Below are positions 16,898 to 63,649 of a stretch of 64,000 bases of DNA, in pieces. How positions within the stretch are numbered: position 1 is the first letter of the stretch; every line of letters starts with the position of its first letter. Source of the DNA: Sarea resinae (taxonomy: Eukaryota). The stretch lies in contig JAPEUD010000028.1 of the NCBI GenBank assembly GCA_026026165.1, positions 62,001 to 126,000 on the forward strand. Direction: 5' to 3'. The notes under the pieces are model-generated. The model made no database searches and was not told where the DNA came from. It saw nothing but the letters and a program-made list of their open reading frames with translations. Both the position numbers and the translations under genes were made by a program.

Positions 16898-18520
16898 ATG
16901 GCCGATCCAGGTTCGCCTCGAGGAAGGGCATCGGGGAATACGGATGGGTCTTTCGATGAGACCTGGGCCAAGGACCTACGAGTACAGTTCGAACAATTAT
17001 TACGAACGAAAAGATTCAACGAGTTCACAGACCGATCCCGGTCGCGGCCTGGCTCTCCAGCACCGATAGACCGAACATCGTCACATGCACAAGCGTCGTC
17101 GTCCTCCAGCGTCCGGTCGCCACATGTTACATCGCATCATATCCCGAGGAAAGCAGTAGGCTCGAACCCATCAACATCCTCACATTCAAATGCGCCACTA
17201 CCGCCATCCTACTCGTCGCTGCGAAATCTTCCCAAAGTCCCCGAGCCACCCAAAGATGCGTCGTCTTTGAAATTTCGAAATCTCTTAATATCCCTATCTC
17301 TCACGCCGACCAAATACGAGAATCCGGGCCTATTAGACGAAGCATTGTCCGTCATCCCGTTGGATAGAATATACGGCGAAGCGCAAGAGGAGAGCGAAGT
17401 TCTCGAAGCGCAGGCTCAGAGTTTGGGCGATGGATCGAAAGCGGAATGGGGTTATCAGGACTGTGTCATTCGGGCATTATTGAGGTACGTCTCCGTACTT
17501 TTATTCGGATTGTCGAGACAAGAGTGCACGTATTGATTGAATCCTCAATAGATGGTTCAAGCGAACGTTCTTCCATTGGGTCAACAACCCACAGTGTCCG
17601 ACTTGCTTGTCGCCGACTATTGCGCGAGGAATGACGCCTCCAACTCCTGATGAAGCCGCACGAGGCGCCGCTCGTGTCGAACTCTACCAATGTTCGGCCC
17701 AAGGCTGCGGCGCTTATGAGCGCTTCCCCCGGTACTCAGACGTCTGGGCATTACTCCAGACACGAAGAGGCCGATGTGGAGAATGGGCAAATTGCTTCAG
17801 CATGCTCTGCCGAGCAGTCGGTGGACGAGTGCGATGGGTCTGGAATTCGGAGGACCATGTCTGGACTGAAGTATACTCGGAGCAACAGAAGCGATGGATC
17901 CATGTGGACGCCTGCGAAGAAGCTTGGGACAACCCTCGGCTCTACTCTGAAGGTACGTAGTGTATCTGCCGTCGACTGCCGAAGACTTACACTGATGTGA
18001 TGTGTTGCAGGTTGGGGCAAGAAGATGGCGTATTGCATCGCCTTCTCTGTGGATGGCGCTACAGACGTAACGCGACGTTATGTGCGCTTTCCTTCACGAC
18101 ATGGCCTTGACCGTACTCGAGCCCCCGAAGAAGTTGTCATCTACATCTTGAATGAGATCCGACGCATGAGGCGAGAAAATCTCTCCAAGGAGGAGCGAGC
18201 ACGGCTCATCAAAGAAGATGAACGAGAGGAGAAGGAACTACGTGGATACGTCGCAAAGGCGTTGGCGGTTGAAGTCACCAACATGCTCCCAGGGAGCCAG
18301 AATTGTAGTCCGACGAACAGCGGTGGAGCTGGCGGGAACGGTGGATCGGCATCGACTTCCGAGGACCAGAAATTGCCTGCACGACAAACTGGTACGCTTG
18401 CTCAAACCCGTGATATGATCAAGTTCTGTACTAATGTTCACTGATGCAGGATCGTCGGAATGGGTCCAGGCAAGAGGCGAAGGGGGATTCACCCGAGGCA
18501 GCCCGCCGGAAGGCCACTGA
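16898..18520 (+). CDS. PNG1: Peptide:N-glycanase (transglutaminase-like fold), 4 exons
   Basis: [21 protein letters not shown] after splicing, [41 protein letters not shown] and C-terminal [14 protein letters not shown]. Introns at about 17485-17551, 17953-18010 and 18392-18449. Confidence 0.9.
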
Positions 18521-19165
18521 TCTTCACATTTTGCCTTCCTTTTTTTCCATCGACGTGCCCCACCTTCAGCACGAAGCAATTCCAGAACTGATTAGAGAGG
18601 GTCGCTCGCATCCTAGATTATGGACCCTTTCGACGACACCCACAGGGCTGGAATCATCACTTCGCTCTTCTTCGTTTAATCCTCTTCGTCTCACACCCGC
18701 TTTACTCTGACCCGGATAGCCCCGGCATATCTCCTACGCGTCCACGAAGTCCTCTGACTGATTGACTGATCTGACTCCGGGATGATTGTTCTATCCTCTG
18801 AGTCATCTCTTCGGATGACTTTGATGTTCTTCGCCCTCTGACTGACAGACGAGTGGAGGATAATCTTGACGTCTCTGACGACGTTTTCTCCAAAACCTGG
18901 GACTTGAATTCGGCCCCTGGACTTGAACTGGGGGTGGGGGGTCTCCTCTATGCATACATACATGCCACTATATCTATCTCCTTTTGTCTTTGATATTTTC
19001 GCTACACACGCGGCGAAGGGGTCATCTTGTCTATCTCATTCCTGGTGTTCCGGATACCGTTGTTTTTTTTTTTTGGTCGTCTTCGCCTTGGTGGTTGCCT
19101 GCGGGTCGGTCGGTGGGGTTTGGTTGGTGGGTCGGTCAGGTTCGTCGGTTCTTTTGTGTTGTCGG

Positions 19166-19199
<34 letters not shown>

Positions 19200-19569
19200 C
19201 TGGTGGCCATTGTAATAGTTGTTGGAACAGTTGATGCCGTTGCTGCTGTCGCCGTTGTCGCCGTTGTCGTCATAAGGGGGGTGGTCGCATGATCGATCTA
19301 TTATCTGCTCCTGCTCCTGCTCATGTTCATGTTCAAGTTCATGCTCATGTTCAGATGGTCGATATGGCTAGATGGATGGCTGGCTGGATGGCTGCGATTC
19401 TCATCGTTTATCTTCCTGTACCGCATTTGCCCCATTTAGCTTTTTTGGTCGATTGAGCGTAGCCTACCATCACCATCACCATCACCATCAACGTCATCAT
19501 CAACATCATCATCACAATACCTCCTTAGCTTACTTATATCATATCATATTACATTGCAGTATTTTATAT

Positions 19570-19650
<81 letters not shown>
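19570..19650. repeat. (TAC)n microsatellite, about 27 units
   Basis: Perfect tactactac run seen directly. It lies in an SSR-rich tract that also has (TGTCGT)n at about 19157-19198 and (CACCAT)n at about 19467-19510. Confidence 0.95.
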
Positions 19651-20696
19651 CTACTCAGTATCTATCTACCTGACCTGCCTCACTTGCCATACCTTATCTT
19701 TACAATATTTACAATACTCTTCTCCATGTCAGATGTCATCACCATCACCATCACCATCACAATCACTTAAGACGCAAAAGAGGGACGTGGGCCGTCCGTC
19801 TTAAGATCCAAATCCGCTCCCAAATTCACTCTTCGCAGTTCCCCAAGCAGATTAGAAACAAAAGAAAGCACGGCGTAGCAAAAGCCCAATTCTATTGTAT
19901 TCTATAAGATGGTTCGCACAGGAGTGGTGAGTGCGTCGAGAAGAGTGGGTGGAGCCTCCTGAACGCGAGAAGGCAAGATCCAGATCGTGGAGAAGAGTAG
20001 GCTAGGTAGATAGATGGACAGATGGACAGATGGACAGATGGGTAGGTCGGTAAATGGGTACGGTACACGGACAGACGGTCTAGAGTAGAGTAGAAACCAA
20101 AAGGAGAAAAAGAGAAGATGAGAAACAGGAGAGCCCGGAGAAACCGTCGGCCACCAGAAAACAAAGAACAACATAGTAGATGAAAAAAAATCCGGCCCCA
20201 GATCCCTTGCACTCCTAATCCAGACAGAAACCAGCTTGGTATAACACATGATCATGAATCCTGCACCCCTAGCCCAAGGTGCCGCAAACGAAACGAACAG
20301 AGAGAAATGAGGCGAAGAAAAGCAATGCCAGACAGCCTCGCGGCGTCCATGGCCTGTGTGGGAGAAGAAGAAGATCTAAGATGCAATGCATGAACGAGAC
20401 AAGATTCGTCGTGAATGGTGCGGAAGAGGATGAAAGGCTGGAGAAAAGGTAGAGGGAGAGCGAGAAAGAGCGCAATGAGATGTGGGAAAGGCTGGCTGGC
20501 GGTGGGGGCTGACGGTGGGGGATGACGCTGAGGGATTTTGACGTCTCTTAGCCTCGGGGGCTGCTATCGCTTGGCTTTATCGCTTCGCCAAGCGCAAGAC
20601 GGGACGAACGAGACGACATGCGAAAGCCATGCAGTGCCATGCGCCTCACGCCTCACTTCTCGCCCATCTTGCTTCCACGGTAGCCACGCCTTTGGC

Positions 20697-21197
20697 TCAA
20701 CGGCCAGAACTGCGGCGGGGGTCATAGGTGTAACCACCGCTATTATGAACAACGGTTTGGCGGCCCGACGAGCTCACCCGCTGTGTAGCGAGATAGCCGT
20801 CCTGATTATATTGAGGACCATTGCTCTCCCTCCGACCTGAACCCTCGGGCGTGCGGACTAGGTAGGTCTGAGCCGTACCCATGCCCGTCGAATTGCCCGA
20901 GCTAGGCGCGTACTTGGAGCTGTAATTGGCCTTGGACGACATTGAGGATGTGGATGTCGATTTGATGCTTGAGGATGATTGATAGGGAGGATTGTAAGGC
21001 GACGAGTAGCTTTGGGGCAGGAACTGGGCGCCGGACGATGAAGATGAGGCGCTGGAATAGCTTGACGAGTAGGCTGATGTCGAAGCCGCGACGGTGCTAG
21101 TCGTACTGCTTGTTGGGCCGGCGGAGATGGTGCGGCTAGAGGAGAGCGACGACGGGTATATATGAATGATAGGCTTGCTTTGGTAATGGTAGGGCAT
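20697..21197 (-). CDS. Hypothetical Ser/Tyr-rich low-complexity protein (about 166 aa)
   Basis: Open frame from ATG (MPYHYQSKP...) with a CT-rich upstream tract and a non-repetitive C-terminus (GPQYNQDGYLATQRVSSSGRQTVVHNSGGYTYDPRR). No family recognised. Confidence 0.45.
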   Translation of the reverse strand: MPYHYQSKPIIHIYPSSLSSSRTISAGPTSSTTSTVAASTSAYSSSYSSASSSSSGAQFLPQSYSSPYNPPYQSSSSIKSTSTSSMSSKANYSSKYAPSSGNSTGMGTAQTYLVRTPEGSGRRESNGPQYNQDGYLATQRVSSSGRQTVVHNSGGYTYDPRRSSGR

Positions 21198-24018
21198 CGA
21201 AGGCGGAGGAAGCGTACGAGACTGGACGACAGCTTGGGGTGCTTGAGGCAACTGTAGATGATATGCTATTGTGTAGTGTTGACGGATGATGAGAGAAAAG
21301 AAAAAGGAGGGGGAGATAAGAGGAAAGATGGATGCTTAAATGCATCCATCCATTGAGCAATAGAAAGACGAAGGAGACCGGTGCCTGGAGGTGGGCAATG
21401 CTAAAATTTGAGAACAGTCAGTCACAACAGTCACAGTAGTCAATATGAGTTGCCAACGAGGGTGGAAGCCAAGCCCCAAACCTGAGGTTGGTAGCCAAAC
21501 CGGTAGGCAGCAAGCCAGAAGTGCCTGAGGCCATCAGAGAGAGAGAGAGAGAGAGCAAGGCCTGGATGTCTCAGGCTACAACATCTGGCCCGGGGGGGGA
21601 GGGGGGGAGAGGGTTGGAGTTAGTGAGTAAAGTCATGGATGAGTAAATCAGAGAAACAAGCGCGCAAGCATCATGTGCATCACTTTGCGTGCGAAAGAGT
21701 CATCGTCGTGTGCGTTGCGTGGAGATGGGGATGGAGAAGAAGAGAGAAGACGATCTCTCTCGGTTTGGTCAGGGTCGGTCTAGGCACCTGAGGCAGATGG
21801 AGGGACCCAAAAACGGCACTAGTGGCAGGCAGACGGGCAGTGAAGATGCGAATTGGAGGTGAGATGGATCGTTGGAAAGGGACGATGTTGCTCGACCATG
21901 TCCGAAGAGGGAGTAGGCGGTGGTGATGGTGATGGTGATGGTGATGGTGATAGTAGTGAGTAGCGAGCAGTCATGGAGCAGCCATGAGCAGTCATGGTGA
22001 TAGGCAGAATCGAGTACCTGAAGGCTCAATCGAGGGGTTGATGGACGATGGCCGTGGGAGATGGGGGGCCTGACGGCTAAGTCCGTCACATCGACACCTC
22101 AGGTATGAAGTACTCCCCAGGTAGATGTAGTACGCCGAGTCTTACAAGAGGTACCAACTAAGGCACCAAACACCAAACGCCAAACACCAAAGGCCACACT
22201 GGAACATCCATCATGATTTATTCTCGTCCTTTGTACATCGAGCCTGAGGCTGACAGAGAGATCAACATCGGAAATAGATATCGCGACGGTTTCAGACTGG
22301 CAACGGGACAATGGCAAATGTCAACGACCACGACCACAATTATAGCAATCACCACACCAACAACAACAGACAGTAACGATGAAGAGATGAGGATGGAGAG
22401 ACGACGATGAATATGAATAGGGACTCGATATGAAGAAGAATGGAATACCCACCAGATCCCCATCCTGGGTCTGCTCGCCATGTTCCCTGACCCGACAGAG
22501 CAGTATTGCATCATTGCCCCATGTACCTAGCGTACAGGAGGTATCACGGACAAGTATGACGGGGTACCCGTCTGCTACTCTCCAGCTCCTCGGCACTGCC
22601 CCGCCCATGCTTACTACTAAATGCTGCGCTCACTACTCATGCCTGTTCGACCCGTATGTCAATGTCAATGAGCCGCCAGCAATCGTCGTCGATCCAGATC
22701 CATGATCCGCATCCTCAATCCTCAATCCGCCGTACCGCGCCAATGCCTGCCCCAGCCCTAGTCCCCCCCCGTCCTGGCCCTGCCATTGACGCCCTGACTC
22801 ATCGGCCCTACCGTTACCGCCCGGCTGCGCTGCATCGGCTCGACCTAGCCTCACCCGAGAGACGCGAGTCACATCGAGTCACAAGGACGCCGTCAACCAT
22901 GGATCAATTGCCTTCTGACGTCCCCATAGCCTATCCCCGTTCCCCGTTCCCGTGTCTCGCCTAGGACCCTACGACTACATTACGGGCGAACCTTTTCATC
23001 TTTCACGTTTGATGATCAGTCACTGTAATCGCGCGTTGCCGTACGCGTTCGGCCTTTGATGATTGGAAGCTGATAAGATACATGTATGCAGTAGCTCAAG
23101 TCAATCTAGAATGACGCAAGCCTTGAGACGAACAAGACCCTGCAGAGGTCACCCAACATTGAAGCTCAAGACTCGCTGTGAGACAGATCGCGGAGCTTCG
23201 CTTTGAGAGTGCGTAGACATGGATGAAGCGGGCAGACTGTGAGGGACTGTTCGGTAAGGGTGGTAGAGGGGTTGTACCAAAAAGGACTCGTTCCAAGACT
23301 GAATCATAGGGGTATCTGAGAATCGAACGGGAAGACCAGTCGATTGGATGCAAATGTAAAAGATATGGAGATAGTAGTAGTGGGATGAAAGATACTTGAA
23401 ATGGTGTCGAGGAAGTGATTTCGCAGGGAGGAAATTGGAGAGAGGAATGAGTTTAGGGGAGGGGAGCCTGAAGCGTGGGCTTTGCAGAGTATTGTCAAGA
23501 AGGGAAGAGGTGAATTTATAGGGATATTGAAGAGAGAATGAAGAGAAGAATTTGAAGACGAGTTTGAAGACGGAATATGAAGACGGGACTCGCAGAACGA
23601 AACTTGAGAAGATGATTGCAGCAACAGGTGCGTGACTTATAGACTCCGAGTCCGAGCCTGGATCGGATCACTATACAAAGACCAAGCATCAAACAATGCC
23701 AATCAAACAGTAAACGGACGAGAATTTTTGGAGGGGAAAGAGTCAGTGGTAGCTTTCTCCATACCGCTGTGGGAATGCTCAGGCCACGCAGGTATGTCTC
23801 CCACCCTACTGGCCTTTTCATGCCGTTCATATGATCTTTTCTGCCTATCCGCCTTTTGACATTCATTACATACCTTTCACCCCCTCAGTCTACACCCTGT
23901 GACCCCCATGAACGATAGCCCGTTCCGATTCACAATTGAGGGCTCCTTTTTCTCTCGTGAACATACCTTCGATCTTCCCAGCCTTTGCAATTGGCTGCTG
24001 GCGATTGCAACAACACGG

Positions 24019-25086
24019 CTCTCCTCTTTTTGTCTCGAGCTTTCGTGTAAGCAACACCAGCTGATTGGCTTTGATCTCGACTGTTCACAGGAGTCTACTG
24101 CAATCCAGAATGCGACGACTCTCCTCATTTTGTCTCGAGCGTCCAAGCGAATTCAGCAGACCTTTCTATTGCATTGATCTGCCTTCATAGCCATGCCCGT
24201 CTTATAATTAGCTGTAATTTTTGGAACGCAAAGGGCTCTTCTCTTTTTTGTCTGAAGCGTGCATATCGATCTGAAGTTTTTTGAGCTCCGGTCTGTGGAT
24301 GTCCAAACGCCAACAAGTAGTTGCAAACGCCAACAAGTAGTATTGTGGTCCCCTAGATCCTCTTGTGGACTGCTGCAACTCAGATCGCAATTGCTCTCCT
24401 CGTTTTGTCTCGAGCTTGCAAGTCTGTTGGCGTCTCTGTTTTCTAAGAACTGAACACTCATGGACAAGAGTTTGGGTCCACTCATCGTAGGGTCGAGTTT
24501 TCACGACCCTCACTTTTTTGTTTCGAGTGCGCACATTGGACCGGGATCTCTCTGGCCCATAGATAGTCGAATGGCGGCATTGCTTTCCTTTTTTTGGGGA
24601 ATAGCAGTCCTGTCCACAACAACTCTCCTCTTTTTGTCTCGAGCGTGCATTTCGAATCAAGAATTTCCTTGGCTTTGTCTGGCATAACTTCTTATTCCCC
24701 TCACAGCAAGACTGTTGTCCTGTAGGTTGCTGCAATCAGAAATGCTATGCTCTCCTGATTTTGGTTGAGCATGCGTTATTATTGCAGCCAAGATTTATTC
24801 GTGGATGTTTCAATGCACACACTTTTCTCCTCATTTTGTCTCGAGCACGTGTCCTTTGAGCGAACCTTTTGGGGCGGAAATATGGCAATCAGTCGGGAAG
24901 TTTGTGTCGCGATCGCCAACTAGCTGATTGTCCCGGGGTGTAGTGCATTACTCTCCTTCTCTTGTTTCGAGCATGCAGCTCTGTCACTTTGGTATGAATG
25001 CCAGAAGACGGATCCATTGTCACAGAAGCCACTGTGCTTCTCACTTCTCGAGAGCACTGCTCTCCTCTTCTTGTCCCGAGCGTGCA
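24019..25086. repeat. Regularly interspaced short direct-repeat array: 10 copies of a 22-27 nt motif with unique spacers
   Basis: Copies start at 24019, 24119, 24236, 24394, 24507, 24623, 24750, 24825, 24951 and 25060. Consensus CTCTCCTCTTTTTGTCTCGAGC, often followed by (G/A/T)TGCA. The 24019 and 24623 copies are identical over 22 nt. Confidence 0.85.
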
Positions 25087-25264
25087 TCAATACTGAGCCG
25101 ATGTATCATGGTTGAATGACAGGCTTTTGGCAGTATGCGCCATCTCCTGCAATCTACTGAATGCGTGATGATGGATATTTGGATGACTGGATTTCCAGAT
25201 TGCTTTTCATTCACCGAGACCACCATGTCTCTTGGCTTTGAAAGAGCTGACCAAACTCATGCAC

Positions 25265-28200
25265 TCAGTCTTTCTGAATTTGCGGCTGCCGAGGTATTGA
25301 GAAACGTCCACGATTGGCCCATCCGTTCATGCCTCGTCGAATACCTAACGTCTTGTTTTGAGGATCAGGCTTATCTGGTAAGTGTGACATGTTTGCTGGT
25401 TGCGTCGTAGCTGCTGGCCGAGGAAACGTTGGAGGATCGCGATTCATGTTCATGGTTTCAACCAACGTATCTCTTGGGGTGTCCTTTGAGCTTTTCTTTG
25501 TAGCTTCTATTTCACCGGGTGCAACACATGGTTGTGGAGCCACTATTGGAGGTGGTGAGCTCGACAAGAAGACGTAATTTTTTGCTTCATGACTATCATC
25601 TCTTATGGATGGGGGCCGGCCTTTGAAAGGCCTCGGCTTCAGGCGATGACCAGCGAGTGGAGGGGGTATCGTTGGGGGTAGAGGCGCATCGGGCACGGTT
25701 GGAAGGCTAAAGCCACCGTGAGATTGGAATGGATGATACATGGTCTGTCCTTCCCTTGCTTCGGGTTTCGATACCTCATTGATTGATATAACTTCCATCG
25801 GCTTGTGAGGTCGGGAACAGCCCGCTCCGTTGCGTGGTCGTGGCAACGACAACAATGGTGAACGCTTATCAGATCCAGTCGGGACGTCACGTGGACTGGC
25901 TGGGTCTTCAATTTCATTTTCTTTGAAGAAATCTAGCAGACTGCCTTGCCCAGGTACTTTCGTTTTAACACCCAATTTCGATGGCTCAGGTTGTGACTGC
26001 GATCCGTTGTGTTTTGCGGATCCCAAATCATTTTTAGTCTTGTTGAGCTTGGTTTTCCCTGCAGGAATGGCATTGCCACTTGCTCCTTGCGATCCGAGCT
26101 GCTGTAGGTGGGCACTAGCGCTCATGAAGCCATTGCTTAGGGATGTATTGGAGACAGAGAATGCTTGTGGATTCTGCATGGTTGTTTCTGTCGATGGTAA
26201 TCCACTGGGCTTGAAAGCTTGCGCCGCCCCATGTGGATTGATCGGCCATTCAGCGTCGATTCGACGGCGCTTCGCAGCCGGATGTAGTGAAGGCTGATAT
26301 CTATGGCCCCTTTGAAGGGACCACGAGGTACTGTCCTCGCTTTGTTCACCGTCGGTATCGCGGTCCGTTGGCCATAAGTCGTCTTCAACGTTTTTGACGC
26401 CACAGCTGGCCGCGATATCAGACTCGGAGGGGCACTGCCTTCTCAAGATTCGCGCTATCGATTGAATTTCGCTAAATCTAAACAGGGGACCTCTCTTTTC
26501 CAACATATGCACCAAAGACGGCTGGGAGAGAAAGTGAGATACGCTCGTCTCGACTGATGTCTATTAGTCTTGTTGGCAGGGCTTGCAGGACTTGCGGTTG
26601 AACCTACTATTTTGTGAACTTTTTGCCGGTGAACTCATATACAAGAGCGCTTGTGCTCTCGTCATGGCAACATAAAGTAACCGTCGTTCTTCGTCTGTAT
26701 TCTCGGCTCTCGAGTGCGGTATGGAACCTTCATATGCTCCCGGGATAAACACCACGGGCCACTCGAGACCCTTTGCTGCATGGATCGTTGATATAGTGAT
26801 TTGATGATCCTGCGCATTGCCATCCTCTTCTGGTTTGACTTCAGAGGTTAAGGTCACATTGGCTAGAAAGTTTGATAAGACATCCTCAGTAGATGAAGGC
26901 TTATGTTGTTCTAGCCCATCGATTTGTGGGAGGAAGTCGTCTTCGTCTTGATTGTCGATCGTCACTGATTGAGAGACTTCTGTCGCCTGGGCAACAAGTT
27001 CTTGCACATTCGCCCATCGCGTCTCATGATCGTTTGGATGGGTCTTCTCGAGGTATTGTTCGAAAGACAGCTGGTCGATTAATGATTCAACCAAGTCAAG
27101 GAAAGAACATGCCGAATTGCTATGGCCAAGTAGCCTTTTCCGCGATCTTTGAATCAGATTCACGAATGAGCCCAGTGAATTGAGCGCTGGCTTCGAAAGT
27201 TTGACTGTCGTCGGCTTGTGTTCTTGAGGGGCGCTTTGTATAAGAGACCAGAGTGTCACTCTCCTCGTCTCTGCCTCTTCCAGTAATCCTTTGACGGTCT
27301 TTTCCCCAATTCTTCTCGGGGGTACATTGATGATGCGAGCTAGTGCGTCACTATTGCCAGGCTGACTGATCACTCGAAGGTAGTCTATCAGAATTTTGAT
27401 CTCCAGCCTGTCAAAGAATCGGGAGCCACCGACCATGCGATAAGGCAAGCCAGCTTGACCCAAAGCAGACTCGATATTGCGTGAGAGAAATGCCGACCGC
27501 ACAAGGATGGCGAAGTCTGAGTTGATCAGAAGATTGCCAGCCAGTCCAAGTGCTCGCCGAATCTCGGAGACAATCCATTGGGCCTCATCAGCAGCGCACT
27601 CAAGTCTCCGAAGCACAGGCCGAGTCCCAACGGAGTGTGTTGGCAGAAGAGTCTTTGGTGGTCTCGAGGTATCTTGCTGAATGACCTCGAGTGCAGCAAG
27701 TAGGATTGATCCAGAGCTTCTGTAGTTCTCTTCGAGTAGGATCTGAAGCGTCTGTGGATATTGTTCGCGCATCCGATCCAGGTTTTTGATTTCGGCCGAT
27801 CGAAAGCCATAGATGCTCTGGTCAGGATCGCCCACGATTGTCACGGTCTCTTTATATTGAGCGAACAGGCGCATGAGCTCGAACTGAACTACGTTCGTGT
27901 CCTGGTACTCATCGATCAGAACTGCTTGTACGTTCGAAACGCAGGCAGGATGCTGTTGCAGTAGCTGTACGCATCGCAATAGAAGATCGTCGTAATCAAG
28001 AAGATTCGAGTCGGCGAGGACAGTCTCGTACTCATCATAAACGGTGTCAAACTCTTGTTGATCGATTAGATTGGGGTTACAAGAGACATGATCGCCTCGA
28101 GGATGAGAAACAACAGCTTGCGATCGGTCACCACCTTTCGCCTTGACTGTCGAGATACGAGCCCGAGCCTTTTCAGGGCGGAGTTGCAATCCGCGGCGTT

Positions 28201-28635
28201 TGACGATACGCTTTCCCGAATGTTAGCTCGATACCTGTGCATGCGACGTTGAGCGAGAAAGACCTTGATGATGCCCAAGCTATCAGAACTGTCTGCGATG
28301 CTGAAGCCACTCTTGACGCCGATCAGAGAGCCATAACGAAAGAGGTATCGCAGAGCAATGGAGTGAAACGTGCCGAGAACGAGTTTCTTCTCGAGACCTT
28401 CACCAATCAGGTTCTTGATTCTGTCTCTCATCTCCCGTGCGGCTTTGACGGTAAAGGTAGCAACGATGACATTGCATGGGTCAAGACCATGGTGCGAGAG
28501 AAGATACGCAACCCGTGAAGTAAGTGTCTTGGTCTTGCCGGAGCCGGGAGGTGCTAGGATCTGAAGGACTGCCGCTGGACTTGCGACCGCATGGCGTTGA
28601 GCAGCATTCAAGCCAGAGAGTATTCGATCATCCAT
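25265..28635 (-). CDS. SRS2: UvrD/REP-family (SF1A) 3'-5' DNA helicase, Srs2-like, 3 exons
   Basis: Motif I LAPPGSGKTKTLT, TFTVKAAREM, GTFHS, LIDEYQD, VGDPDQSIYGFR, LEENYRS, STIHAAKGLEW and EERRLLYVAMTRA, followed by a disordered C-terminal tail. Introns at about 28211-28264 and about 26555-26607 (second acceptor uncertain). Confidence 0.9.
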
Positions 28636-39278: not shown

Positions 39279-42155
39279 TCAGCCTCTCCTTCGCCTGAAT
39301 CGAAACTTCAACTCGTCCTCACTCTCGTCCTCCTCGTCATCACTATCCTGCACCCTGGCTCCCCGGGCGAGGGTCGTCTGTCGTCTCTTCTTTGGGGGCG
39401 GCTGTTGTGCCCTCGCCGCCGCACCAGAAGACGAAGCGACGGGCGCAGGCCGTTTGGAGCTTGTCCGAGCGTCACTGCTACGGGTGTTGTGTGCTGCGCG
39501 GCCTGCAGAAGGAGGAGGCTGGCTGGACGGATCTGCAGCAGCGGTGCGGCGGGTGGATTTCACTCCTCGTGAGGGCTTCGAGATGATCTCTGTGACCTCG
39601 GGCATCTCATCATCGATTCTGTTCGTCACTTGATCATGGTCGTCGTCGTCGTTGTCGTCGTCGGAGATGACATGCGCCTCGGAAGGCTGCTGCGACGGCT
39701 GGCTGCGAGCAGTCGCAAAAGGTTGGGACTCAGAGCGAGAATGCTGGCTCGTCAGCGAATCTAGCTCGTTCTCTCTCTCCTTCTCCTTGCCCCTCTTCGT
39801 ACGGTAGGATCTGCCTTCAATCCAGTATTCCTCGCCAATGCCATAGTCTTTCTTTTTCACTTCCTCGAGCGGTACTATGACCTTCTGCGCCCTACGTTGT
39901 ATGGCAGGAGCACCGGCTTCGACGCGCCGACGGAACTTTTTGAAATTCTTTCGACCATTCCAGCGCTCGTCCCAGCGGTCACCCGTGTCACCGTAAGCTG
40001 CTGTCCTGGATGGTCTGTTTGGGCGTTCTAGAACTTCCATCTCTTCGACCAGAGCGAGATTCTTCATCTGCTCTATATCGATGCCCTCAAGCGATGCTTG
40101 AAGGGATTCCTGACCAAGACGTGCTACTTCTTCCTCGGCCTCTAGGTGCTCGCGAGCGGCTTCACGCACGTTGATTTCTTTGTTTGGCTTCCTCGCCATT
40201 TTCGGGGACTCTACCGGAGTCTGTTGGGACTGAGAGGGTTTTGTCGATATACCCCTCCTTTCCTCGTCGATTCGTCGGCGCTTCATTGCGGCAGCAGCAG
40301 GAAGCATAGTCTCTACGACCTCTGCATCATCTTCATGATCGGATGGAGGCGCTGATCGTTTCCTTGACGATCTATTCTGTGTCGCGCTGGTTTCGTGGGG
40401 CTGGGAGTCAACATCCATAACAGACTGGCTGACGAACAAGCCTTGCTGGAGATGTGTTAATTCTACGTTTGCCACTCTGCTCGGGGGGGCCTACCGACTC
40501 CTCTCGCGTAGCGTTGTCTTGAGGGACGCTGCTTATTTGGAGAGAACTATCAACTAACGACTTCTGTGGTGTTGACGCGGAATCAAAATCGTCAAATCCC
40601 TTGAATCGACTCGTCACTGCTCTTCGCATTCTTGAACGCCTAGTAGGCTTCGGCTGCTCCTCCACCGGATTCTCTGATGGCTTTTCTGCAGCCTCTTCCT
40701 CGACCGCTTCATGCCGTTCCTGGGTGCTAGGCACTACGCACACGTCAGTTCGAATCAAGTGTAGAGTGAAAAGGTCGGACACTCACTCGCCGTGTTTGGA
40801 GGGGCCCTTATACTCTCATCGTCTTCTTCAGGCAAAGGTCTTCTAAGCACACTAGCATCATTAACAAGTATGGCATCCAAGAACTCGCTCTGCTCTATGA
40901 GTCGTTGATCCAGTCTTCGAGCTACATCATTCCCAAGCTCAATGGCCCAGTCTTCCATTCCCTTCTTTCCCCTAAATCGAACCACGACGGCGCCTTTCCC
41001 TGCGTCCCCACTTTGAAAAGATTCGTTCTCTTTCTCGCCAGAAACATTCTTGACGTATTGCACAATCTCCTCTACAGTCGTTTTGCCCATCTGGAGCTGA
41101 AATAGGACCGCCTTGCCGCCGCCATTAGCGATTGGTGCTTGTAGATTATCAAACTGCGTCTGGTCGCAAAAGACAAAGGTAAAATTCTCGAAGACATTGG
41201 CCCTTTTAGGATCGGGAGCAAAGAACTCCGCAGGTCGCTGTTTGGGTTCCTTTGCTTGGGCGGGCAAATGTTGTGAAACGTCGGGCCAATTTGCATCAAA
41301 ATCTATTTCCAGGGGCGCTTGGCTTTCAATTCCGTCCACGGCCCCCGGAGTAGCTGCTGCAACTATGGCGTCCACGAAAGAATCATCGACAATGTACCTG
41401 GCATTGATCAGGGCCTGAAGGCCTTTCGCTGTATTACGCTTGCTGGCCACCACGTGGGTTGTCTTATTGGTCACATAGGGGATGATTGCTTTGATATCAA
41501 GAGCCTCGAGACGTGCGCGCACGGGTATCAAAGGATCCTTGTTCTTTTGCTCCTTGGATGAGAAGGAAAAGGACAACACGACAGGCTCCCACCTTATGCT
41601 TGACAATGTGAATATGCGGCAAAACGCCAGAGTGGAGAGATCTCAAGGACTTACCGAAAAAGCTGCGGGAAACTACCGAGCTTGATTTCGTGCTCGTCTT
41701 TGCTCAGAACACGAGATTGACCTCGAATCTGTTCGCCGTCGAGATGAGTGCCAATCTTGGCGTTCTGATCCTCGATCGTGAGCTCTGATCTGGTGTGAAC
41801 ATGAGACTAGGATCAGGTTGGGTCAGTCTCTAGCAGCCATCTATACAGGAAAAGCAACGTACGCCGTCTCCCGGTTTGACATCGGCTACCGTGATGGTAA
41901 GATGCTTCCTCGAGATGGACTTGTTCTCGATGACAAAGCCGCCTAGAAACGAGGTTAATTTCTGGTTTCCGAGCAATCCGACCTTTTTCATCTCTCACCT
42001 CCTTCAGGCCTTGTCCTCCCGAAAAGATATTTTTTGCCCGGCCGTAACCAGATTCTCTTGTCTGCGGGAAGTAGCACATCAGCCAAAGATCAACCGGATG
42101 GCTGGCATCAATGCTTACGCTGTAGCACATCGCCATCCGACTCGAGAATCCACAT
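39279..42155 (-). CDS. NBS1: Nibrin/Nbs1 (Xrs2, ScaA) subunit of the MRN complex, multi-exon
   Basis: FHA start MWILESDG../WLRPGKKYLFGR/KSISRKHL, BRCT region (TTHVVASKRNTAKGLQALIN), Mre11-binding WNGRKNFKKFRR, and acidic patch plus FxF Tel1/ATM motif (DDEEDESEDELKFRFRRRRG*). Confidence 0.9.
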
Positions 42156-57029: not shown

Positions 57030-57830
57030 GATGATTATCAGACCGCGCGACCGGTGGACGCTCCGGACAATTATGATCCATGAACTTGCCCCGGTAATAT
57101 CTTGCGCAGCCTCTTCTGCAGCCCATTCTGGCATTCAATGGAATTGGGAGTTTTTTTGAACAGGGTCCTTTTCAAGGGACATGCATGACACCTGGAGTCT
57201 GTCGTCACTCTGTCTCGCACGCCTGTGCATTTTCATTTGTTATAGGAACTCTAGTCTGGATACCTGGAGTTCATCGTCACTGTCTCGCACGTCTCTGCGA
57301 TTCCATTTGTCATCGGAAGCCTGATCTGGATCAAAAGGCGGTCCGATTGGGGCCCCTAGGCGTTGGCGGTTTAGCATTTTATACGAGAGATACCCTTGAT
57401 TAGCAGATTGAAACAGTCTTGCTTTAAGCGTTTTAATGGATGGATGAGGCTCATTGGCGGTTTCGAGCAGTATAGAAAATAACAGCATACAATGACTTTA
57501 TTAATTATGGCTTGAATATTTGGTGTCGAGTAAAGTAAACAAGCGGCTCAAGCGTCTATAGCGGCGGATGCTTGACGCGAGAGCGGACTTCGCTTCATGA
57601 GCTGGGCCGGGCGGGCTGGAGCTTGCACGGCAGCATACGGTGAAGCGCACGAGCAATTGAGAACTGCGAAAACGTCAATTATCCCAGAAGTGAGGCGCCC
57701 AAGCTCTATAAACGGCTGCGAGTACTCGAAATTGCTTCCGCCTTTTGATTGAACACAATGCAATGACCCATACATAATCCGCTCCATCTCCACCTCCCGT
57801 CACCACCACGACTAGCGCCCTCTGCTCATC

Positions 57831-60837: not shown

Positions 60838-63018
60838 TCAGCGGAAAAAAGCACGTGTCTTCTTCGTTTCCGTCTCCGCTCCAGCTCCACCATCAGCCCG
60901 AGTCCCAGAAGCCTCACCAGAAGCCTCACCAGAACCAGACCCCGCAGAAGCCGAAGCCGAAGCCGAAGCCGAAGCCGCCGCGGCGTCCTTGACCGCGTCC
61001 CGGATCGTCTGGCGCGAGAGGCAGTAGTCGATGTGAGCGTTGAACTGGCGCCCATCGGCGCGCTGCGGCCGCGAGCAGATCGGGCATTGCCATACATTAG
61101 CTGTATCTTTTTCGCTTTCGCGCGCGGCGTCGTGTTGGGCCGGATGCGTAGCTGCAGCGGGTGTCGAGGACGTCGGTGCTTTCTGGGCGGCAGCTGCTAG
61201 AGCGGCGGCGGCAGCAGCAGCAGCAGCGGTTGCGGGGATGGGATTCGGTAGGATCTCCTTGCCGTGCCGGCGCCGCTTGGTGCTGTTGGCGTCGTCTGGA
61301 TCGCGCTGCTGCTGGTCCGGCGGGGGCCCCTGAAATAGATGGTCGTCTTCTTCTTGGCTCAAACGACTCATCTCGGCCATCTCGTCTTCCTTCTCCCGGC
61401 GGGCGGCGGCCTCGAATTCCTCCTCGGGCCAGACCTCCCATTCTCCCCCACCATCATCATTACAATCACTGGCACCAGCCAAGACGCTAGCTTTCCGTTT
61501 CCCCGACCCTTCCCCTTCAAGCCCCCCTTCGCGCTGCTGCCGCGTTCTGGTGAAGCCGAAGAAATCTATCGGCCCCGGCTTCGAGTCCGTCAGGTTCGTC
61601 ACCCGCAATCCCATCAGCCGGATCCGCATCCCGGGTCGCTCGCGCTCCAGCTTCGCCAGCATCGGCAAGGCATACGTGTACAGCTCGTCGGCGGCCGCGA
61701 TGGCGCGGGGCAGAATCACCTGCCGTGTCAGCACCTCGTACGTGTGCATCTTCATCTTCAGCACGAGGGTGCGGCCGCGGACGCCCGTGCGCACGAGGTC
61801 CTTCTCGAGCTCCTCGGCCGTGGCGCGTAGTTTGGCCCGCAGCTGGCCTTTGTCGCTGATGTCGCCAAACGTGCTCTCGGTGCCCACGCTCTTGCGCTCG
61901 TACTCCTCCGCCGGCTGGATCACCGTGCGCCCGAGCCCGAGGTAGCAGTTCATAAGGAAGCTAAAGGCCTTTTCGCCGAAAAGTTTGGAGAGGTACGCCC
62001 GCTGCGCGTAGATGTCGCCGCACGTCTTGATGCCGATGGCGTCGAGTTCGCGCTCGAACACGCGGCCGATGCCGTTGACTTTGCGCGTCGGCAGCTCTCG
62101 CATAAAGGCCATGATGTCGGCGCGCGTCGACGGCACGCGGTACTGGCCGTTTGGCTTGTTCTTGTTGGAGGCGATCTTGGCGAGTTTGGCATTGGCCGCG
62201 ATGCCAGCGGAAATCGTAATCTTGGTCTTCTCGGACACTTCGGCGCGCAGTTGCTGCACCGCGGACTCCGGGTCCAGATCGTCGTGCTCTTGCAGGTACT
62301 TTGTAATATTGAGGTAGGCCTCGTCGATACTGGCGCTCTCGAAGCGCGGGTCGTAGTTGGCGAGGATGGCACGCACTTCCTGCGCCTTGGCCGTGTATTT
62401 GTCAAAGTTGAGCGGGAGGCAGATCAGGTGCGGACAGAGCTTCATGGCGATGAATCCAGCCATGCCACTCCGGCAGCCGAATTTGCGCGCGTGGTAGTTG
62501 CAGGTCGTGAGCACGCCCTTGCCCACGGCCATGGGGACATGCTTCAGTTCCGGCCGATCAAGCTCTTCTACCGCGGCGTAAAAGGCGTCGCAGTCGATGT
62601 GGACGACGGTCTGCGAGAGGTCGCGCGAGAGCTCGAGTTGCGCGATGTAATCGTCGGCGCGGCGGAGGTCTGACTGGAGGTCGACGCTTTCCAGCTTGCG
62701 CTTTCGCGCGAGGATGCTTTCGATCTTCTTCGTGAGGTTCTTATCCTTGACTTCTTCATTGTTGAAATACTTCGAGCCCTTGGACGCCTCGTAGATGGTT
62801 TCCGAGACCTGTGCATCACCCCAGTAAGCATGGGAACAGAGGATAGCTGTTGGAAGACCAACCTTTCGCTGATCGACAGCATCTTGACCGGCCTTGGTCA
62901 AAGAAGGGCCTAGCAGATGGTATTTGAGAGTATCGTGTTCCCCGACGCTGGCTGCTGCTGCCGCTGCTGCAATGACTTGGTCCGGAGCTGGCGACGGGGA
63001 CCCTTGAGCAACGGTCAT
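60838..63018 (-). CDS. POLK: Y-family translesion DNA polymerase kappa (DinB homologue)
   Basis: VHIDCDAFYAAVE, TCNYHARKFG, ASIDEAYL, SAGIAANAKLAKIASNKNKPNG, RKSVGTESTF, UBZ finger CPIC..FNAHIDYCL and PIP-like C-terminus KKTRAFFR*. 54-nt intron at 62809-62862. The start codon (63018 or 63111) is uncertain. Confidence 0.92.
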   Translation of the reverse strand: MTVAQGSPSPAPDQVIAAAAAAASVGEHDTLKYHLLGPSLTKAGQDAVDQRKVGLPTAILCSHAYWGDAQVSETIYEASKGSKYFNNEEVKDKNLTKKIESILARKRKLESVDLQSDLRRADDYIAQLELSRDLSQTVVHIDCDAFYAAVEELDRPELKHVPMAVGKGVLTTCNYHARKFGCRSGMAGFIAMKLCPHLICLPLNFDKYTAKAQEVRAILANYDPRFESASIDEAYLNITKYLQEHDDLDPESAVQQLRAEVSEKTKITISAGIAANAKLAKIASNKNKPNGQYRVPSTRADIMAFMRELPTRKVNGIGRVFERELDAIGIKTCGDIYAQRAYLSKLFGEKAFSFLMNCYLGLGRTVIQPAEEYERKSVGTESTFGDISDKGQLRAKLRATAEELEKDLVRTGVRGRTLVLKMKMHTYEVLTRQVILPRAIAAADELYTYALPMLAKLERERPGMRIRLMGLRVTNLTDSKPGPIDFFGFTRTRQQREGGLEGEGSGKRKASVLAGASDCNDDGGGEWEVWPEEEFEAAARREKEDEMAEMSRLSQEEDDHLFQGPPPDQQQRDPDDANSTKRRRHGKEILPNPIPATAAAAAAAAALAAAAQKAPTSSTPAAATHPAQHDAARESEKDTANVWQCPICSRPQRADGRQFNAHIDYCLSRQTIRDAVKDAAAASASASASASAGSGSGEASGEASGTRADGGAGAETETKKTRAFFR

Positions 63019-63649
63019 GATAGTCGGCCTAAGGGAGCTGGGTCCGAGACAGGCATCTGCGCGACGGTGGCAAGACCGAGCGAAAGCTATATGACGGACC
63101 GGGACAGTCACACATTCGAGCTGCGTCGCCTTGATCTGTGAAGAAAGGAGTAAAGTAGGGCGTCAGTAGCAGCCCTACCACCCTACAGAGGTACCTATCT
63201 ACTCTACCGCAATTGATACGCGGGGAAGACTACTCGCGAAGCATGGCGATCTACTCCGTACGTAGTATCAGTCAATTCATTTGTAATGTATATGAACACT
63301 TCCATTGTTGTCTTAGAATAATTACTTGGATGATCTTGCAGGAAGACGACCACCCGACCCGCCAGATCCGCCGTATGAACATATCCTGCGCGTTCCCTAG
63401 CATTCCCGAGCATAACTCCTGGAGACCGTCAAAAACTCATGCCCCCTCCATCCAGACCCACGACCTGTACTTCCGTCAAGAGTCCGCCGTCCGCCGCCCG
63501 GAGCGTAGAAATGAAAGGATAAAGCCGCCCACGCGGCTCTAACAGAATACATAAAGGGACGCAGCTTACGAAACGGTGAAAAAGAAAGTTCCGTTGATTT
63601 GTTCAAGATCCCAGCCCACACGACCCCCGAACTCCCTGCCATCGTTTCC

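Follow-up and report, generated by a model that had tools for sequence, protein, structure and literature searches.

A ten-copy array of a conserved bipartite motif downstream of a UvrD/Srs2-type helicase gene in Sarea resinae as a candidate homotypic recognition-site array

Ten copies of a conserved 22-nt motif alternate with mostly unrelated sequence directly downstream of a UvrD/Srs2-type helicase gene in the fungus Sarea resinae. The array was found in a 64-kb window of one metagenome-assembled genome (GenBank assembly GCA_026026165.1, contig JAPEUD010000028.1, positions 62,001 to 126,000; all coordinates below count from the first letter of this window). The array is real, and a single factor that binds DNA or RNA most likely docks at its conserved copies. 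Our preferred reading, to which we assign a probability of roughly 0.35, is that a unit of ~115 nt was duplicated in tandem and that its bipartite core alone was kept under selection as a recognition site, which would be read on DNA in a barrier or boundary role. We infer that the reading would take place on DNA rather than RNA and that the function would be that of a barrier. Judged by its sequence, the locus may be described as a homotypic recognition-site array with a mechanism that is a candidate only.

If three or fewer mismatches are permitted, the pattern CTCTCCTCNTTTTGTCTCGAGC (22 nt with one free base) is matched seven times in the window, always on the plus strand and always within 1.07 kb (24019-25081), compared to a mean of 0.00 matches in 100 dinucleotide shuffles. 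Three more copies, at 24236, 24507 and 24750, are recognizable yet decayed, two of them with a 1-nt insertion or deletion (Table 1). With a position weight matrix (PWM) of 27 nt the strong copies reach 32-40 bits. Outside the array no comparable copy was found on either strand of the window, and no minus-strand or reverse-complement copy of the core exists in it. The right half of the core, TTGTCTCGAGC, yields seven matches in the window at one mismatch or less, all of them inside the array, against 1.84 expected. Successive copies start 100, 117, 158, 113, 116, 127, 75, 126 and 109 nt apart (mean 116 nt), leaving spacers of 78, 95, 136, 91, 94, 105, 53, 104 and 87 nt between the 22-nt cores.

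An earlier reading of the letters alone (from here: the sequence-only reading) had listed these ten same-orientation copies and their start-to-start distances and had noticed the motif nowhere else in the window, all of which was borne out. It had also stated that the motif is usually followed by NTGCA. The full motif is CTCTCCTCNTTTTGTCTCGAGC(RTGCA), spanning 22-27 bases, and the exact NTGCA tail follows the core in five of the ten copies (24236, 24394, 24623, 24951 and 25060). The more decayed copy that it had suspected near 23941 scores 7.7 bits and could not be told from chance, as scores of at least 6 bits occur 0.6 times per kb and strand in the rest of the window.

Pairwise comparison of the seven strong copies gave a mean identity of 0.89 in the 22-nt core and 0.25-0.36 in the flanks, at a random expectation of 0.26. 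The 5 nt after the core, i.e. the RTGCA tail, show an identity of 0.53, the 24 nt upstream 0.34 and the sequence further downstream 0.27, and the drop from core to flank, down to the random level of 26-30%, happens within ~5 nt. The core itself is bipartite, consisting of an 8-nt and a 13-nt near-invariant block around one free base, which is T, A, G, T, A, C and T in the seven copies. Four of the 22-mers agree with the consensus at all 21 fixed positions. Because exact 22-mers persist beside randomized DNA, we infer that the core is probably under purifying selection, to which the sequence-only reading had also pointed when it judged the motif to be far better conserved than the spacers.

An all-versus-all alignment supported the description of the spacers as mostly unrelated: their mean local score is 14.1, compared to 13.2 for shuffled sequences, and they are not as similar to each other as the motifs are. 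Only three of the 45 spacer pairs stand out, all through a shared second box, CTGCAATC(C)AGAATGC. This box lies ~21 nt upstream of the core in the units at 24119, 24394 and 24750, so that three to four units keep it, and it occurs once more at 25147-25164. Taken alone, its frequency in the window does not exceed chance (three matches against 2.33 expected), but the box is credible because its position is fixed relative to the core. The residual homology in the second box points to a common descent of the units from a single duplicated stretch of ~115 nt; an origin of the array by tandem duplication is therefore likely. The longest spacing, 158 nt, is explained by a 20-nt tandem duplication, CAAACGCCAACAAGTAGTTG, at 24304-24341 within spacer 3, which shows recent slippage. 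Given spacers at shuffle level and this fresh duplication, spacer sequence and spacer length are both unconstrained.

The decayed minisatellite of ~115 nt, which had been put forward as one of three hypotheses, is accordingly retained in part. Its tandem origin is likely in view of the three to four units that keep the second box. A plain minisatellite or variable number tandem repeat (VNTR) does not suffice and was rejected, as Tandem Repeats Finder (TRF; minimum score 30) called no period of ~115 nt and the spacers are at shuffle level.

A wider version of this idea, which we consider rather unlikely, is a relic or selfish repeat without host function. It could be an old minisatellite with a core kept by biased conversion or by chance, or the local array of a dispersed family, e.g. 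of the protein-binding repeats of a transposon. Such an origin would agree with the visible decay, including indels, of three of the ten copies, with the irregular spacing and with the new duplication in one spacer. It would also agree with a metagenome scan using the degenerate core, in which no related arrays were found: 12 loci gave one match each, six of them being one identical sequence, and the sole exact 22-mer match lies antisense in a bacterial helicase gene. Neutral decay, however, cannot leave four consensus-perfect 22-mers beside random bases, and conversion tracts would not stop at the same sharp edges in every copy. Neither an inverted partner array nor a terminal inverted repeat or a transposase was seen in the 64 kb. 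Transposon subterminal repeats would go with minus-strand copies, of which the window has none, and with a transposase family, of which the scanned reading frames have none. The surrounding genes are ordinary housekeeping genes. Protein families were assigned by a Pfam scan of 50 open reading frames (ORFs), namely ten around the array and 40 of the 63 window ORFs of at least 140 aa; the 23 others either had been covered before or were alternative frames that overlap others or run antisense to them. These 50 ORFs include no cas, transposase or Myb family. Moreover, the core had 0 matches in viral contigs. The spacers, for which a similarity search had been suggested, were compared with the rest of the window and gave nothing significant (best E value 0.053 over 17 nt).

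In the recognition-site reading that we prefer, a unit of ~115 nt would have been duplicated in tandem to give the array, the spacers would then have drifted to randomness, and purifying selection would have retained the bipartite core (eight fixed bases, one free base and 13 fixed bases, often followed by RTGCA), the weaker box ~21 nt upstream being partly kept. The core would thereby form ten recognition sites of equal orientation, at which a single dedicated protein would most likely bind duplex DNA sequence-specifically. Placed in a gene-free gap of 4 kb downstream of the SRS2-type helicase gene, the cluster might act as an orientation-dependent barrier or boundary against read-through or convergent transcription, or against replication forks. 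Two invariant blocks around one free base, sharp edges, a lack of structure and free spacers fit contact by a protein. The start-to-start spacing of 75-158 nt is mostly below nucleosome length, and the layout is that of a homotypic terminator or barrier, with many same-orientation copies at short irregular spacing, a near-perfect core, variable surroundings and a gene upstream. A homotypic cluster of binding sites had been another of the three hypotheses, and from the sequence it remains the one that fits best. In a passage of PMC3814307, the budding-yeast Xbp1 site is given as CTCGAG/A. The core contains CTCGAG, identical to the Xbp1 site core, a 6-mer that is a lead only and too short to assign the factor.

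Several points weigh against this interpretation. No Myb, APSES or other obvious DNA-binding domain is encoded beside the array among the ORFs scanned. The Sal-box core GGTCGACCAG does not occur in the motif, and the locus is not ribosomal DNA (rDNA). Tandem duplication by itself accounts for the shared orientation, which is therefore uninformative as to function. A fully conserved site of 22-27 nt is long for a single transcription factor, and a factor with sites at one locus only is unusual. The case for selection comes from one genome. Finally, an unstructured RNA motif would leave an identical sequence footprint.

We regard a non-coding transcript as a possible, tentatively held alternative. 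The module would belong either to a plus-strand long non-coding RNA (lncRNA) running toward the 3′ end of the helicase gene or to a long minus-strand 3′ extension of the helicase transcript. An RNA-binding protein or a complementary small RNA would dock at the core, which would itself be unstructured, and the transcript would act as a scaffold or decoy. A locus-unique motif, as seen in the window, would be natural for an RNA module, and the length of the core is that of a small-RNA target. The gap that holds the array is purine-rich on the plus strand from 21300 to ~23700 and pyrimidine- and T-rich from ~23700 on, where the GC and AT skews change sign just before the array; within the array the plus strand has T at 0.33 and A at 0.20. 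This skew, however, runs on into the helicase gene and so cannot tell which strand is transcribed. Shortly before the array, a canonical-looking fungal intron (GTATGT...CAG, 97 nt) was noticed at 23792-23888 on the plus strand, as well as TATA-like boxes at ~23637 and ~23670. The intron-like element could mark an unannotated plus-strand transcript into the array. Searches with ORFs of the array yielded no protein-coding model among proteins of comparable length.

The structural evidence did not favor an RNA module. Folding of 11 units on both strands gave z-scores from -0.90 to +1.72, i.e. no stable fold. On visual inspection the two flanks of a core seem able to pair, but the flanks of one copy paired with each other no better than with flanks of other copies (permutation p 0.10, 0.55 and 0.23 for 10, 14 and 18 nt). 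RNAalifold placed 0 pairs on the plus strand and only an invariant 4-bp GCUC/GAGC stem on the minus strand. Neither this program nor the flank-pairing test revealed a covarying hairpin closing the core, and the window offers no reverse-complement core with which hairpins could form. Rfam returned nothing at the gathering score in the whole window and, at E values up to 10, two sub-threshold matches, both outside the array. A scan for tRNAs found none, and a scan for C/D boxes over 22800-25300 found one weak candidate that overlaps the helicase stop codon and lies outside the units. A polycistronic cluster or host gene of C/D small nucleolar RNAs (snoRNAs) was rejected, since the units have no C/D box pair with a stem and there are no periodic introns. 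As a separate observation, two TGATGA boxes and a CTGA occur within 64 nt at 23010-23073 on the plus strand and are superficially C/D snoRNA-like; they had no Rfam match and failed the box-plus-stem scan. Small RNAs with an Sm site were rejected as well: the A-U(4-6)-G-R consensus is mostly absent, there are no flanking stems beyond chance, an Sm-like A-U4-G core exists in three of the ten copies only (24119, 24750 and 24825), and two copies have no U run. The proposals of the sequence-only reading that the motif marks processing sites of a guide-RNA-like array and that its T-run-G core resembles an Sm-type site thus found no support in these searches.

Two more specific RNA models were considered. 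In the first, which appears improbable, the array would consist of mini transcription units in series, with the upstream box and the pyrimidine-rich core as a promoter or leader module and each variable segment as a separate short RNA, as in a guide-RNA array. Fungal transcription start sites often lie in CT-rich tracts. The layout of a conserved module followed by a variable body would suit this model, as would the GCAATCAG within the upstream box, which is near a CCAAT-type box and lies ~21 nt before a CT-rich tract, and the T runs in eight of the ten cores and in several spacers. The upstream box, however, is present in only three to four units and by itself does not exceed chance; the variable bodies lack a fold, boxes or a family match; two strong copies (24951 and 25060) have no T run; and a promoter, an RNA and a terminator would hardly fit into 75-158 nt. 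In the second and still less probable model, one nuclear transcript would carry ten unrelated bodies of ~90 nt punctuated by a shared 27-nt handle. The handle would be bound by a dedicated protein or complementary RNA and the bodies would act as guide, decoy or antisense units, in a Cas-free variant of CRISPR-like logic.

A coding function of the motif, in short exons or small ORFs, is highly improbable. In plus-strand frame c, in which codons start one base before the core, it would read (A/T)LL(F/I/V/L)LSRA(C), similar to the end of a signal peptide. Four of the seven variable positions are synonymous third positions in this frame, and the free position corresponds to F/I/V/L. The same positions, however, are also third positions in the antisense frame, and four of seven is not significant; there is no in-frame Met, and in the seven strong copies a stop codon follows 1-12 codons past the nine-residue motif. 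As the sequence-only reading had stated, the copies fall in different frames, their distances differing modulo 3, with stops between them. No series of canonical introns that would restore a reading frame was detected by intron-chain and canonical intron scans. A protein-coding tandem repeat was rejected on these grounds. For the array ORFs (175 aa on the minus strand, 105 aa on the plus strand), neither relatives nor a gene model turned up among proteins of 96-307 and 57-184 aa, respectively. The longer one is a basic, ATG-less open frame of 175 codons at 24208-24735 that runs antisense through four core copies and has no Pfam family; it is probably a by-product of the purine-rich minus strand.

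That the array is an adaptive, CRISPR-like record in which the spacers are captured foreign DNA has next to no probability. The layout of direct repeats and unrelated spacers alone speaks for it. The spacers of 53-136 nt, however, are not uniform and have no match in the rest of the window. Among the 50 scanned ORFs there is no cas gene or other dedicated nuclease or integrase, and the intron-containing helicase gene identifies the host as a eukaryote. A true CRISPR array is effectively refuted by the non-uniform spacers, the lack of a cas gene in these ORFs and the fungal host. The sequence-only reading had made no such claim, and its term CRISPR-like holds for the layout only.

The array lies inside a gap of ~4 kb between two minus-strand genes. 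On its right, the stop codon of the helicase gene (25265-25267, minus strand) is 184 nt from the end of the last core, matching the earlier estimate of about 180 nt. The C-terminal ORF of the helicase shows 100% identity to the end of a protein of 1087 aa, which its source attributes to a Sarea resinae MAG, and in the collections searched the next best relative of this tail is 31% identical. Left of the array, the first ORF for which a start is plausible encodes a Ser-rich protein (minus strand, ~20700-21197), the simplest ORF of which had no exact match in the protein collection. Beside this gene, a long (TAC)n microsatellite and GTC/CAT trinucleotide tracts were observed at 19567-19653, 19149-19285 and 19462-19514. 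A purine-rich tract on the plus strand (23350-23650), with GAAGA-type tandem repeats of 12-13 nt at 23526-23586, is located ~350 nt left of the array. The Pfam families of the window include cyclin, WD40, UCH, FKBP, Nibrin-type BRCT, squalene/phytoene synthase, DnaJ, PIG-M and Y-family polymerase. Four genome-maintenance genes occur within it, Rad4/transglutaminase-like (18001-18441), UvrD/Srs2 (25265-28635), Nibrin-type BRCT (40758-41642) and Y-family polymerase (60841-63162), a clustering that is probably a coincidence. Further away, two direct copies of 52 nt with 79% identity were noted at 57210-57261 and 57280-57331, 70 nt apart. Titles and abstract openings of the literature on the Sarea resinae genome contained nothing relevant to this locus.

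Table 1. Positions of the motif copies and associated features in the 64-kb window
Feature	Position	Strand	Remarks
Core copy 1, 0 mismatches	24019..24040	+	followed by TTTCG; PWM 36.6 bits
Core copy 2, 0 mismatches	24119..24140	+	upstream box at 24098-24113
Core copy 3, decayed	24236..24258	+	1-nt insertion and substitutions, CGAG to GAAG; followed by GTGCA; 15.5 bits
Perfect 20-nt tandem duplication, 1.9 copies	24304..24341	n/a	inside spacer 3; TRF
Core copy 4, 0 mismatches	24394..24415	+	diverged upstream box at ~24373-24388
Core copy 5, decayed	24507..24528	+	18.9 bits in window scan; 20.2 bits in 27-nt PWM
Core copy 6, 0 mismatches	24623..24644	+	followed by GTGCA; closest to consensus, 39.8 bits
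Core copy 7, decayed	24750..24770	+	1-nt deletion; upstream box at 24730-24745
Core copy 8, 1 mismatch	24825..24846	+	pattern match and PWM
Core copy 9, 3 mismatches, without T run	24951..24972	+	pattern match and PWM
Core copy 10, 2 mismatches, without T run	25060..25081	+	followed by GTGCA
Doubtful eleventh copy	23941..23962	+	7.7 bits, not distinguishable from chance
Orphan upstream box (CTGCAATC..GAATGC type), no core behind	25147..25164	+	right edge of array; pair 24019/25060, z 7.8
UvrD/Srs2-type helicase gene with introns	25265..28635	-	UvrD-helicase and UvrD_C domains (Pfam)

If the core is a selected binding site, the array would represent a locus-specific, orientation-locked cluster that follows an ordinary Pol II gene of a filamentous fungus, whereas clusters of this type are otherwise known from special places in the genome, namely the terminators of rDNA and the mating-type barrier of fission yeast. 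It could then reveal by what means densely packed fungal genes are protected from read-through transcription or from conflicts with replication, and the 27-mer is long and exact enough for direct use as bait for the factor. If it is true that the motif is read on RNA, it would be part of a modular lncRNA of a kind that is rare in fungi. In the collections searched, no close relative of Sarea is represented by sequence, as seen from the helicase tail, and the case rests on one genome.

Known repeat systems resemble the array to different degrees. In the Xist A-repeat and the DSR clusters of fission-yeast meiRNA, short conserved cores with variable U-rich linkers are arranged on one transcript and serve for protein docking. 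The Xist A-repeat differs by its conserved hairpin, as RNAalifold placed none in the core described here, and the DSR hexamer of meiRNA is much shorter than this core. CRISPR arrays likewise alternate direct repeats of ~22-27 nt with unrelated spacers, but their spacers are nearly uniform in length, they are accompanied by cas genes and they belong to prokaryotic hosts; here, three of the repeats are decayed by changes that include indels. Minisatellites and VNTRs share the head-to-tail arrangement in one orientation, units of ~100-130 nt, probably the same origin and slippage that is still active. In these repeats whole units can be aligned, whereas here only the core aligns and TRF made no call.

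The closest parallels are the mouse rDNA terminator bound by TTF-I and the barrier RTS1 of Schizosaccharomyces pombe; the likeness to both may concern a possible working mode and not membership. According to passages of PMC3772059, the mouse terminator consists of ten TTF-I sites spaced 18-123 bp apart, said to leave no room for nucleosomes, with almost perfect identity of the core, varying surrounding bases and an orientation-dependent effect. Both arrays have ten same-orientation sites (T1-T10 in the mouse) directly downstream of a transcription unit, and both are spaced irregularly and too tightly for nucleosomes, with 53-136 nt between the cores here. Both also combine a near-perfect core that includes a 6-bp palindromic restriction site with variable surroundings. 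The mouse terminator differs by its core GGTCGACCAG and by serving Pol I at the rDNA, whereas the candidate site cluster described here lies behind a fungal single-copy gene of the Pol II class; at 22-27 nt, its conserved block is also longer than the TTF-I core. For RTS1, passages of PMC10473836 describe a region B that is ~450 bp long and contains four repeats of a motif to which the Myb protein Rtf1 binds; it forms a polar barrier with an adjoining purine-rich region A. We liken RTS1 to the array by layout only. Measured against that description, RTS1 has four copies instead of ten, resides at the mating-type locus and is bound by a Myb factor, of which no gene was seen in the window here. 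It is, in common with the array in Sarea resinae, a fungal and locus-specific array, with a period of ~110 bp compared to a mean of 116 nt, and its purine-rich region A may find a counterpart in the purine-rich tract to the left of the ten copies.

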